Below are positions 39-3,642 of a DNA stretch of 5,266 bases, piece by piece. The notes under the pieces were generated by a model. The model did not search any database. It was not told where the DNA came from and was given only the letters and a program-made list of their open reading frames with translations. The position numbers were made by a program, and so were the translations under genes. The DNA lies in the IMG/VR virus record IMGVR_UViG_2671180283_000015. One strand, 5' to 3'. Source of the stretch: a virus (lineage: Duplodnaviria > Heunggongvirae > Uroviricota > Caudoviricetes). How positions within the stretch are numbered: the first letter of the stretch is position 1; each line of letters opens with the position of its first letter.

Positions 39-430
39 GGAGAGTGGCGCTATGTGCCATTGCATGGTGCCGGGTGCCTCCCGGTGAATTCAGTACCAGC
101 ACCTGAATCCGCGATTATCCCATATACCTACTCGCTGATTGCCCCTCCGCACAGGGGGATTCACCATGCCAGTTTCTTTTAACAAACTCCCCGCAAACCA
201 GACAACAGTCAACCGCCTGAATTGTGAAGTATTTAAAAATTTCTCCCGCTAACTGATACCCGGCTAACAGTCTGGCGTTTTCTTTTTCAGCAACGGGAAA
301 GCAGCAACCACCACACCCGCCACCAGCACACCGTCAGCCAGCACTGACATTATCCGGCTGCTGCAATGCCATTCACAAAAACAGTAAGCAATCACTTTTT
401 ACCGTAACCGGTGATAATCCAGATATGTAT

Positions 431-787
431 CTACCCCAGATGAGTAATCCGAAGTTCATCCATACCACAGGTCCTGGCTATTCTGTTGTACTCCTGAACA
501 AGAGCAAATAATTCTGAATTAGCCACCATGAACTCATCGCAAACCCTCTGTATAGCATCACTATTCAGAATAATAACGTCTCTTCCCGAAAGACGATCAG
601 GAGTACAGAACAAAACTGTCAAACGGCTGAAGGCCTTTGCTCGTTCTGCATTGACTATATCAATACGCTGCCTAAGGATGAAACACCCCGACGCCTCATC
701 AATATTCACTCTACCCACACCATATGAATGATAAATATTTAATGCTGAAAAAACCATTAGACCGTATAACAAACACTCAATCAACAC
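431..787 (-). CDS. Hypothetical protein in the AT-rich cargo slot (doubtful)
   Basis: The 118-aa frame is open but has a non-ATG first codon; the first ATG (757..755) has no clear Shine-Dalgarno sequence. It carries 3 AGA, 2 AGG and 3 ATA codons, and shows no recognisable motif. Confidence 0.3.
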   Translation of the reverse strand: MLIECLLYGLMVFSALNIYHSYGVGRVNIDEASGCFILRQRIDIVNAERAKAFSRLTVLFCTPDRLSGRDVIILNSDAIQRVCDEFMVANSELFALVQEYNRIARTCGMDELRITHLG

Positions 788-1196: not shown

Positions 1197-2246
1197 TCAA
1201 ACGATTAAATCCTGAACTTCCCTGACTGTCTGCTCAAAACGTCCGGTCTCCAGTTCAACGCCAATCGCACGACGCCCCAGTGCCATCGCCGCTTTTACCG
1301 TTGAACCCGACCCCATGAAAAAATCTGCAACCAGGTCACCCGGACGACTGCTTGCGCTGATTATCTGCTGCAGCATTTCTGCCGGTTTTTCGCACGGATG
1401 TTTCCCGGGATAGAACTGCACCGGTTTATGCGTCCACACATCGGTATACGGCACCTGCACCGTCACGCCAAAATACCGCCGCAGATGTTTATATTCACTC
1501 AGCAGCTCCGCATACTGCCGGTTCAGTGAGGTATACGTATCCACCAGCTGGTGGTGGAGCTTTTCCAGTTCACCACGCCGATGCTTCTCTTCTGCCACCC
1601 GGGCAAACAGCGCCTGTAATTTCAGATAATCGCTTTCATTCGGTAGCTGCCACTGACTGGCACTGAACCAGTGCGACACCATGTTTTTCTTTCCTGTGGC
1701 ATCTGCAATCTGTTTTGCCGTTATCCCCAGGGCCGCGCGCGCATCACGAAAGTAAGAAATCAGCGGGGCCATCACATGCTGTTTCAGTGCACTGCCCTTC
1801 GCCGCATACCCGGCATCTTTCGGACGATACGGCCCCTGATAATGTTCCGCGAACAGAATGCGCTCTGTGGCGGGGAAATACGCCCGCAGGCTTTCCTTGT
1901 TGCATCCGTTCCAGCGTCCGGACGGCTTCGCCCAGATAATATGGTTCAGCACACTGAAGCGTTCACGCATCATGATTTCGATATCAGATGCCAGGCGATG
2001 ACCACAGAACAGGTAAAGACTTCCGGCAGGTTTCAGCACCCGCCAGAACTGCGCCAGACACTGGTCCAGCCACTTCAGGTAATCATCGTCGCCCTTCCAC
2101 TGGTTATCCCAGCCCTCAGGCTTCACTTTAAAGTACGGCGGGTCCGTGACTATCAGGTCAACAGAATTTTCGGGTAACGACCGGATAAATTCCAGGCAGT
2201 CGGCGTTGATTAACTCACAACTGGATATTTTTACAGTATTAAGCAT
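1197..2246 (-). CDS. Orphan beta-class amino-methyltransferase, probably an N6-adenine DNA methyltransferase
   Basis: The 349-aa product has motif IV DPPY at residues 35-38 and motif I FFMGSGST near residue 310. The IV-before-I order defines the beta class, and DPPY favours N6-adenine. No endonuclease gene is adjacent. The Shine-Dalgarno sequence is weak (AGG about 13 nt upstream). Confidence 0.9.
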   Translation of the reverse strand: MLNTVKISSCELINADCLEFIRSLPENSVDLIVTDPPYFKVKPEGWDNQWKGDDDYLKWLDQCLAQFWRVLKPAGSLYLFCGHRLASDIEIMMRERFSVLNHIIWAKPSGRWNGCNKESLRAYFPATERILFAEHYQGPYRPKDAGYAAKGSALKQHVMAPLISYFRDARAALGITAKQIADATGKKNMVSHWFSASQWQLPNESDYLKLQALFARVAEEKHRRGELEKLHHQLVDTYTSLNRQYAELLSEYKHLRRYFGVTVQVPYTDVWTHKPVQFYPGKHPCEKPAEMLQQIISASSRPGDLVADFFMGSGSTVKAAMALGRRAIGVELETGRFEQTVREVQDLIV

Positions 2247-2338: not shown

Positions 2339-2369
2339 GGCTGGTGGGTGCCCCTAACACCCACCAGCC
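2339..2369 (-). repeat. Perfect 12-bp inverted repeat (GGCTGGTGGGTG, 7-nt spacer, CACCCACCAGCC) in the methyltransferase leader
   Basis: Read directly from the sequence at 2339-2350 and 2358-2369. No U-tract on either strand, so it is not a terminator; it is an operator-like palindrome or a stable RNA hairpin. Confidence 0.6.
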
Positions 2370-2382
2370 GCCCATTTACCAC

Positions 2383-2410
2383 AAATAAAAAAGCCTTCAC
2401 TGCGGAAGGC
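2383..2410 (-). terminator. Intrinsic terminator immediately after the 65-aa ORF
   Basis: On the minus strand: GCCTTC (2410..2405), loop CGCAGT, GAAGGC (2398..2393), then TTTTTTATTT (2392..2383). Confidence 0.6.
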
Positions 2411-2594
2411 GTCTGTAACAACCGAACTGATAGTCTGCCAGACCCGCCATAACCAGCTGGGTCAGTATTAACTGGCAGCGTTCGCGTGAAAGGTAAGTAT
2501 TCTGCGCTATCTCCCCGACTGTCGCCGGTTCGGTAACGCTTAATTCATTAAACACCACTCTGGCGGTTTCTGTCATATCCTGCTGTTTTAGCAT
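2397..2594 (-). CDS. Hypothetical 65-aa protein, possibly a small winged-helix-like DNA-binding protein
   Basis: ATG at 2594 is preceded by AAGGGA 8-10 nt upstream. Product MLKQQDMTETARVVFNELSVTEPATVGEIAQNTYLSRERCQLILTQLVMAGLADYQFGCYRRLPQ. The stop codon sits inside the following terminator hairpin. The fold call is pattern-based only. The longer 94-aa version in the ORF track needs a GTG start with no ribosome-binding site. Confidence 0.45.
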   Translation of the reverse strand: MLKQQDMTETARVVFNELSVTEPATVGEIAQNTYLSRERCQLILTQLVMAGLADYQFGCYRRLPQ

Positions 2595-2716: not shown

Positions 2717-2738
2717 AAAAAACCCGCCAGGCGGCGGG
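2717..2738 (-). terminator. Intrinsic terminator (tR'-like) about 45-65 nt downstream of the late promoter start
   Basis: On the minus strand: CCCGCC (2738..2733), loop GCCT, GGCGGG (2728..2723), then TTTTTT (2722..2717). An all-GC 6-bp stem followed by a U-tract. Confidence 0.65.
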
Positions 2739-2780
2739 GTGTAAAAAATCTTCTAACGTCAGGCATAAAACGCCCATCGT

Positions 2781-2818
2781 TAGGGCAAATTTACCACAGA
2801 TTCGGGAAAAATCAACAA
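2781..2818 (-). promoter_or_regulatory. pR'-type late promoter with a sigma70-dependent promoter-proximal pause element (Q engagement site)
   Basis: The minus strand reads TTGATT (2815..2810), a 16-nt spacer, TGgTAAATT (extended -10; hexamer 2793..2788), tgccct, then AACGATGGG (2781..2773). The core GGTAAATTTG...AACGATGGG matches the recalled lambda pR' -10 and initial transcribed pause-inducing sequence. Predicted +1 is near 2781. Confidence 0.7.
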
Positions 2819-2820
2819 CA

Positions 2821-3642
2821 CTATCGCGTTACCCTCTTTAACTGCCGCTCCGCCCATGCCTCTTCAATGTCAAACCGAACCACCAACGTATCGTAAAAGC
2901 GTTTCACTGATTTTTTCCACGTATCAAGCGTGATAGCACTCGTCACTTTGCGTATGGCATTAAATGCCTCCGTTGATGGTAGTCTTTCACAGCCACGACC
3001 ACCACAACGCTGGCAGTCTCTGATAACAGGCATACCACGTTTTACCGACTCTTCACGATGAATGGCGACACCACGCCCACGGCAGTCTTTACAGGCAGTG
3101 GAAATCTCCCCCTTCCCTTTACATTCAGGACAAGAAACTTTCACCACCTCCCGAATTTTTTTCCATTCTTCCCAGTAAGACGGATACACACCTTTCGTAC
3201 ACTTTGCCCATACTGGCGGCTTGCCATCCGGATACTGAACCTTGTTTGTAAAAACCTCGCTTTCAATAAATTTTTTTCCGTGACAGCAGGGGCACTGTTT
3301 TTTGCTCGCCGCGCTACGGGCATAATCTTCAAACGCATACGAAGCCATAATACGCATCACTGCCGGTTTTATTTCTGCCGGGAGTTTTCTTAACGCCGCC
3401 ACGCGATCACACCGACTGAGTGCATATTCTGTCAGCAATTCTGTTGCCCGCTCTCTGTCATTCATACTAATGCCCATTTTCCCAAGGAACGCAGAAAACC
3501 CCATCTCAGCCCGATTCTGTGTCATGCCCTGCGCGGCCATCACATCAGTGATACTCAGCGCATCTTTCGACGTTGAGGCCGATGCATCAGTCAGGCCGGG
3601 GGATTTTGGGGAGTAGTATTTCGGTAAATCTTCCAGTTTCAT
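2821..3642 (-). CDS. Q: Late-gene antiterminator Q (lambda-Q family) with an expanded CxxCxGxG zinc-binding region
   Basis: The 273-aa product shares N-terminal (KYYSPKSP...TDVMAAQGM) and C-terminal (TWKKSVKRFYDTLVV...VTR) blocks with lambda Q as recalled. The centre carries four CxxCxG-type repeats (CPCCHG, CPECKGKG, CKDCRGRG, CQRCGGRG). A pR'-like promoter lies immediately downstream. Confidence 0.85.
   Translation of the reverse strand: MKLEDLPKYYSPKSPGLTDASASTSKDALSITDVMAAQGMTQNRAEMGFSAFLGKMGISMNDRERATELLTEYALSRCDRVAALRKLPAEIKPAVMRIMASYAFEDYARSAASKKQCPCCHGKKFIESEVFTNKVQYPDGKPPVWAKCTKGVYPSYWEEWKKIREVVKVSCPECKGKGEISTACKDCRGRGVAIHREESVKRGMPVIRDCQRCGGRGCERLPSTEAFNAIRKVTSAITLDTWKKSVKRFYDTLVVRFDIEEAWAERQLKRVTR

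Follow-up and report, generated by a model that had tools for sequence, protein, structure and literature searches.

A DNA methyltransferase gene that follows a Q antiterminator gene in a phage genome, with no restriction endonuclease beside it, raises the question of which enzyme it encodes, when that enzyme is made and what it is made for. We addressed this question in a 5,266-nucleotide stretch of DNA from the tailed-phage record IMGVR_UViG_2671180283_000015, referred to below as the window. ORF calling on the window gives an ATG-start reading frame at exactly 1197–2246 on the minus strand, which encodes 349 residues and which we assign, from its Pfam domain and its identity to M.EcoGII, to the beta-class N6-adenine methyltransferases of the M.EcoGI/M.EcoGII family. 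The Pfam domain PF01555 (N6_N4_Mtase) matches residues 29–340 (E 4.3e-43, 148 bits against a cut-off of 26.7). The translation places the DPPY catalytic motif (motif IV) at residues 35–38 (2133–2144, minus strand) and the FxGxG AdoMet-binding motif (motif I) at residues 310–314 (1305–1319, minus strand), the latter within the sequence DFFMGSGST (residues 308–316). As DPPY lies N-terminal to FxGxG, with the target-recognition domain between them, the motif order is that of the beta class. The initial annotation had called a beta-class DPPY methyltransferase at this position, and the reading frame, the Pfam match and the motif order all confirm it.

Among solved structures, those nearest by sequence belong to beta-class enzymes, for instance M.RsrI, CcrM and M.MboIIA; they align only over residues 8–141 and 269–343, the catalytic parts, and leave out the central region. 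Taking the limits of the corresponding M.EcoGII domain (PMC11551740), the charged linker and four-helix target-recognition domain span residues 135–259 (1470–1844, minus strand). A Dam-like orphan GATC methyltransferase was considered and rejected, as the protein matches only PF01555 and neither PF02086 nor PF05869, and its motif order is beta class; the prophage that carries M.EcoGII has a separate PF05869 Dam gene, distinct from the M.EcoGII gene.

M.EcoGII is a 349-residue beta-class enzyme, encoded by an E. coli O104:H4 prophage, that methylates adenine non-specifically in DNA and RNA, with single-stranded DNA, RNA and DNA:RNA hybrids among its substrates (PMC5778455). For comparison, we reconstructed its sequence from a machine-read supplementary table (PMC11551740) in which three places had been misread: HII as HH, RR as RRR, and a THKPVQ-type stretch that was garbled. 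Four repaired versions were made, and the only one present in the protein collection, that with TYKPVQYYPGK, was adopted. The adopted sequence is encoded exactly on four NCBI E. coli chromosomes (HF572917.2, CP017840.1, CP015887.1 and CP018008.1), which we take to be O104:H4 outbreak genomes. Against this sequence the window's methyltransferase is identical at 334 of 349 residues (95.7%) in a full-length, colinear and gap-free alignment that includes the charged linker and the target-recognition domain, and the two proteins fall into one 90%-identity cluster of 4845 members. It is closer still to M.EcoMV of strain EC958 (340/349, 97.4%), which we used as a stand-in for the M.EcoGI sequence and which is given as 99% identical to M.EcoGI (PMC4659465).

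By its sequence, then, the window's methyltransferase is an allele of the M.EcoGI/M.EcoGII family. The earlier comparison with the M.EcoGII type stands on this identity, on the shared cluster and on the same place downstream of Q behind the same small ORF; its description of such enzymes as prophage-encoded, non-specific and silent in lysogens is borne out by the literature, in which M.EcoGI and M.EcoGII are reported as silent in lysogens and an anti-restriction role is proposed for them (PMC5778455). More distant relatives are informative on specificity. The full-length homologue ARM81ld_p56 of an Aeromonas phage is 55.6% identical to the window's enzyme and the phiP27 homologue 87.9%; ARM81ld_p56 and OS31_p25 of a Serratia phage were found by experiment to be non-specific or extremely relaxed m6A methyltransferases, and the authors predicted non-specificity for the phiP27 homologue and for many Escherichia phages (PMC7556043). 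As relatives at about 56% identity are non-specific, non-specificity extends across the whole family. Given 96–97% identity to the assayed enzymes, we infer that the window's allele would also methylate adenine irrespective of sequence context.

The differences between the window's allele and M.EcoGII are not evenly spread. The two proteins differ by 15 substitutions, M.EcoGII having been assayed and the window's allele being read from DNA, and 13 of these lie within residues 135–259 (p 7e-5), which make up the linker and target-recognition region. Of its 15 deviating residues the window's enzyme shares 11 with M.EcoMV; the other four, A212, R223, L230 and A246, are private to it, being found in neither M.EcoGII nor M.EcoMV. 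From M.EcoMV it differs by nine substitutions (L2A, A212S, R223Q, L230P, A246V, L249Q, V263A, M321L and D346G). In codon terms, the catalytic domain has 15 synonymous and 2 non-synonymous differences from M.EcoGII and is thus under purifying selection, whereas residues 135–259 have about 12 synonymous and 13 non-synonymous differences, a pattern that points to selection being relaxed or diversifying on the surface that binds nucleic acid.

Such clustering, together with the four private residues, is what one might see had the allele become a sequence-specific orphan methyltransferase with a defined motif, serving phage regulation or packaging, and site-specific M.PflMI does have a similar predicted fold (PMC11551740). 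We consider this very improbable. M.EcoGI and M.EcoGII themselves share only 333 of 349 residues, differing at 16 positions, yet both are non-specific for adenine (PMC5778455); the relatives at about 56% identity are likewise non-specific; and the window's enzyme keeps the charged linker, which is absent from M.PflMI (PMC11551740). The non-specific reading is therefore retained below.

All credible genes of the window are co-oriented on the minus strand, and in transcription order they are a DUF968 gene (5078–4020, with a weak HNHc_6 match), a RusA gene (4019–3639), a Q antiterminator of 273 residues (2821–3642; PF03589, E 3.8e-49; phrog_127, 'anti-termination protein Q-like', E 3e-111), a 65-residue ORF, the methyltransferase and two tRNA genes. 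The first tRNA, directly downstream of the methyltransferase (1072–1147), has a CAT anticodon and is called Met by ARAGORN, with an Rfam tRNA score of 72.5 bits; its RefSeq homologue is labelled tRNA-Ile, which implies that the anticodon would be modified to read an Ile codon. The second, found by both ARAGORN and Rfam, is a tRNA-Arg (TCT; 895–971). This pair of tRNAs is the one annotated downstream of the methylase in records of Stx phages.

Close relatives place this module in complete prophage contexts. The methyltransferase gene is 100% identical in nucleotide sequence to the gene for the RefSeq 'DNA-methyltransferase' WP_000935515.1 in E. coli WP7-S17-ESBL-04, where the module belongs to a lambdoid prophage at ompW with annotated genes from integrase to tail tape measure, and where it is followed by genes for a SASA esterase, holin, lysozyme, spanin and terminase and by structural genes. 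No complete E. coli genome matches the full-length window at more than about 96% identity, in keeping with the mosaic nature of lambdoid prophages. The M.EcoGII locus has a matching order of Q, terminator, 65-residue ORF, terminator, methyltransferase and tRNA-Ile/tRNA-Arg. In the cultured phage mEp460, Q is followed by a hypothetical gene, the small ORF and the methyltransferase, and then directly by holin, lysozyme and spanin; in Aeromonas phage ARM81ld the methyltransferase lies directly before the holin and lysis cassette, and OS31_p25 is followed by holin and lysozyme genes. The prophage of WP7-S17-ESBL-04 also carries, outside the region homologous to the window, an IteA/IteS anti-phage system (24571–27964) between the replication genes and the DUF968 gene.

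The methyltransferase thus sits at a prophage site downstream of Q and upstream of tRNA genes and, by its relatives, of lysis genes. No restriction endonuclease was found in the window, and none is annotated in the 41–45 kb prophage context of its closest relatives, which together support the orphan status claimed in the initial annotation. Two nuclease-like genes deserve mention: the HNH gene of the closest prophages adjoins the terminase genes, and DUF968, located in the stretch from the replication genes to Q, is also found in differently arranged loci. We accordingly rejected assignment to the methyltransferases of Type II restriction-modification systems, the neighbours being the 65-residue ORF and the tRNA genes, with no adjacent endonuclease.

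Downstream of the tRNA genes, positions 8–198 on the minus strand give a strong Rfam match to the gammaproteobacterial sRNA STnc100 (138 bits, gathering score 47, E 2e-31), in the same orientation as the late genes; Rfam matches to P26 and Plastid-ycf2 were below their gathering scores and were disregarded. A low-GC segment at 239–882, absent from the M.EcoGII locus and from UM146-type loci, contains an ORF of 118 residues (431–787, minus strand) that matches phrog_2873 (E 2e-70), has no assigned function and is unannotated in the RefSeq homologue, and a DUF3927/TciB-like ORF of 43 residues (264–395, minus strand). Matches of Stx2 phages to the window break up around this segment, with stx2A and stx2B annotated inside those matches, so stx2AB probably occupies about this slot in Stx2 phages.

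A gene in such a setting could be an inert remnant of a defective prophage that is never expressed. The M.EcoGII prophage has been called cryptic (PMC5778455), and a window of this length does not reveal whether the prophage it comes from is intact. Set against this are an intact reading frame, a catalytic domain under purifying selection, close relatives both in prophages annotated from integrase to tail and in cultured phages, and the frequency of the gene, all of which make the remnant reading highly unlikely. In the assembly collection, 9123 indexed blocks contain the exact protein, corresponding to thousands of assemblies, and DNA homologous to the gene occurs in 1979 of 5426 complete E. 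coli genomes; the allele is among the commonest in E. coli.

The DNA directly after the Q stop codon suggests when the gene would be expressed. From 2815 to 2773 on the minus strand it reads TTGATT, a 16-nt spacer ending in TGG, TAAATT, TGCCCT, AACGAT and GGG, and it aligns with GGTAAATTTGACTCAACGATGGG of lambda at the corresponding place just after lambda Q. We annotate it as a lambda-PR'-like late promoter (2776–2815, minus strand), with TTGATT as the -35 element (2815–2810), a TGn extension before TAAATT (2793–2788) and a pause-like AACGAT (2781–2776). From what is known of lambda PR', we take TAAATT to be the -10 hexamer and AACGAT the promoter-proximal pause at which Q engages RNA polymerase. 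The element matches the consensus at only 8 of 12 positions and was missed by the consensus scan, and its assignment rests on the similarity to lambda. That scan found no sigma-70 promoter of at least 9/12 on the minus strand between Q and the methyltransferase. A GTGGTAAAT repeat at about 2383–2375 resembles the extended -10 of PR' without the final T of the -10 hexamer, and it was rejected as a promoter.

Two candidate terminators separate this promoter from the methyltransferase. The first, tR1 (2717–2738, minus strand), is a tR'-like intrinsic terminator with a GC-rich hairpin followed by U6 (-12.6 kcal/mol), about 45–65 nt downstream of the PR'-like promoter; the M.EcoGII locus has a homologous element before its small ORF. 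The second, tR2 (2387–2410, minus strand), is a terminator-like hairpin with U6 (-8.9 kcal/mol) at the end of the small ORF, between it and the methyltransferase. Two further calls were set aside: a terminator-like call at 2787–2771, which coincides in part with the stretch first transcribed from the PR'-like promoter, and a plus-strand call at 2256–2274, which is the other strand of a small hairpin immediately preceding the methyltransferase start. An RNA running from the PR'-like start to tR1 (2717–2781, minus strand) would be made constitutively in the lysogen and would measure about 65 nt, a by-product comparable to lambda 6S RNA and to StxS, an sRNA of Stx phages (PMC7547250).

To see how widely this arrangement is kept, we counted each element over the 76 related IMG/VR loci that have enough upstream sequence. 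The PR'-like element is present in 39 and tR1 in 38 of these, while the Q type of the window occurs in 34 of the 67 loci with enough sequence to type Q; the similar numbers fit a promoter and a Q that travel as a matched pair. Terminator tR2 is kept in 73 of the 76. Late, Q-dependent expression of the methyltransferase is a prediction well supported by this anatomy and by analogy with Stx phages, in which PR' is constitutive, its transcripts terminate at tR' in lysogeny and read-through follows once Q is made (PMC7547250). Silence in the lysogen would follow from the two terminators and the lack of a detectable promoter of its own, in line with the reports on M.EcoGI and M.EcoGII and with RT-PCR in EC958, from which the authors predicted that M.EcoMV is inactive in the lysogen (PMC4659465). 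The link to Q need not always be immediate, as two opposite-strand genes intervene between Q and the cassette in the M.EcoGII locus.

The small ORF in front of the methyltransferase accompanies it almost throughout. This winged-helix-turn-helix (wHTH)-like ORF of 65 residues (2397–2594, minus strand) matches phrog_331 (E 1e-37), which has no assigned function, and weakly the Pfam family TrmB (E 0.0065). It lies just upstream of the methyltransferase in 75 of the 76 relatives, whatever their Q type, and likewise in phage mEp460. The M.EcoGII locus also has it, with a diverged middle part. Across the IMG/VR loci, the pair of small ORF and methyltransferase follows at least three different Q types. 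Between tR2 and the gene, the methyltransferase leader contains a perfect 12-bp hairpin (2339–2369, minus strand; -30.3 kcal/mol) that lacks a U tract and is present in 51 of the 76. A 60-residue, TTG-start ORF at 2239–2421 overlaps here and covers the leader hairpin. In the distant ARM81ld, a gene annotated as a Com-like translational regulator (1329–1544) overlaps the methyltransferase start, a hint that separate tight controls of a toxic methyltransferase evolved in different lineages.

It is tempting to regard the small ORF, tR2 and the leader hairpin, which accompany the gene behind several unrelated Q types, as a dedicated control cassette for a toxic, non-specific methyltransferase, although we put this forward as a tentative idea of low probability. 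The small wHTH-like protein could limit or time synthesis of the methyltransferase, or could sense adenine-methylated DNA, as other winged-helix domains do. If true, this would make the cassette functionally analogous to Com/Mom or to the controller proteins of restriction-modification systems. A stronger version, in which expression depends mainly on this cassette rather than on Q, could draw on the persistence of the small ORF regardless of Q type and in the M.EcoGII locus, on that of tR2, and on the Com-like gene of ARM81ld. It is nevertheless unlikely, as the promoter scan gave no hit between the small ORF and the methyltransferase, the small ORF has no assigned function, and the position downstream of Q is itself conserved; moreover, control by the cassette could add to control by Q without replacing it.

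Taken together, we think it very probable that the window encodes a non-specific methyltransferase that is silent in the lysogen behind two terminators, is made by Q antitermination and methylates replicating phage DNA against restriction in the next host. Within this explanation, family membership comes from sequence and gene order, and we infer the activity of the allele, its dependence on Q and the anti-restriction benefit. The PR'-like promoter right after Q would fire constitutively in the lysogen, its transcripts stopping at tR1, with a second stop at tR2 after the small ORF, so that the methyltransferase would remain silent. Once the prophage is induced, RNA polymerase modified by Q would pass both terminators, and its transcript would cover the small ORF, the methyltransferase, the two tRNA genes and, judging from the synteny of relatives, the lysis genes as well. 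The enzyme would next modify many adenines of replicating phage DNA, whatever their sequence context, and progeny genomes would be partly protected from those Type I, II and III restriction enzymes that are blocked by adenine methylation. Such protection may carry a cost when methylation is heavy, as M.EcoGII-modified plasmid transforms E. coli at 4–5 orders of magnitude below control DNA (PMC5778455).

The last of these steps is where a different function could be argued. A non-specific enzyme might serve mainly in host takeover or shut-off by methylating host DNA, in RNA methylation with late transcripts or the neighbouring tRNAs as targets, or in the timing of packaging and lysis. The action of M.EcoGII on single-stranded DNA, RNA and DNA:RNA hybrids and the slowing of growth on its expression (PMC5778455) are compatible with this, as is the position of the gene directly before the tRNA genes and lysis cassette, and our literature search returned neither a direct anti-restriction test nor direct evidence of virion DNA hypermethylation or better plating on restricting hosts for such a phage. 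We nonetheless regard a main role other than anti-restriction as improbable: methylation by M.EcoGII blocks many restriction enzymes in vitro (PMC5778455), temperate phages of many hosts widely carry members of the family, which fits general defence evasion, and an RNA target in vivo would be hypothetical. Anti-restriction accordingly remains the preferred function.

Our results support the view that this feature was already known, and that the initial annotation was correct and adds nothing new. The enzyme family is biochemically characterised, sold as a reagent and widely used for chromatin footprinting, and its prophage location, lysogen silence and presumed anti-restriction role are already published. 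The points made firmer here are the frequency of the allele, the PR'/tR' pair with a second, conserved terminator, and the accompanying small ORF. The cassette of wHTH-like ORF, terminator and hairpin is the one item absent from the papers that we consulted.

Among characterised systems, M.EcoGII of O104:H4 strain C227-11 (EGT69837.1) resembles the window in protein length and class, in the small ORF, leader and tRNAs, and in its prophage location downstream of Q, but the Q upstream of it belongs to PF06530 rather than PF03589. M.EcoMV of EC958, in prophage Phi4 at ompW, shares with the window the order DUF968, RusA, Q, small ORF, methyltransferase, tRNA-Ile and tRNA-Arg. ARM81ld_p56 and OS31_p25 are full-length homologues that also lie near lysis genes but are much more divergent than M.EcoGII, and ARM81ld has its Com-like regulator gene where the window has the wHTH-like ORF. 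Promiscuous adenine methylation is also attributed to alpha-class M.HaeV-type enzymes in the account that PMC5778455 gives of Drozdz et al. (2012); their motif order is reversed, with FxGxG at the N-terminus and DPPY at the C-terminus, which marks them as a different family from that of the window.

With respect to regulation, the lambda PR' core GGTAAATTTG....AACGATGGG right after Q is matched in the window, where a terminator likewise follows shortly downstream. The two differ in that the window's Q is of the PF03589 type and not the lambda type, in the interval between the -35 and -10 elements, in the weaker -35 element of the window, and in the two terminators and extra genes that precede its lysis cassette. 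The predicted regulatory logic would be that described for Stx phages (PMC7547250). A functional parallel is the Mom/Com system of phage Mu, which is likewise a toxic DNA modification that is silent in the lysogen, made late and protective against many restriction systems (PMC12707154). Mom, however, is an unrelated protein that adds an acetamido group rather than a methyl group to adenine, and it is controlled by Dam, OxyR, C and Com.
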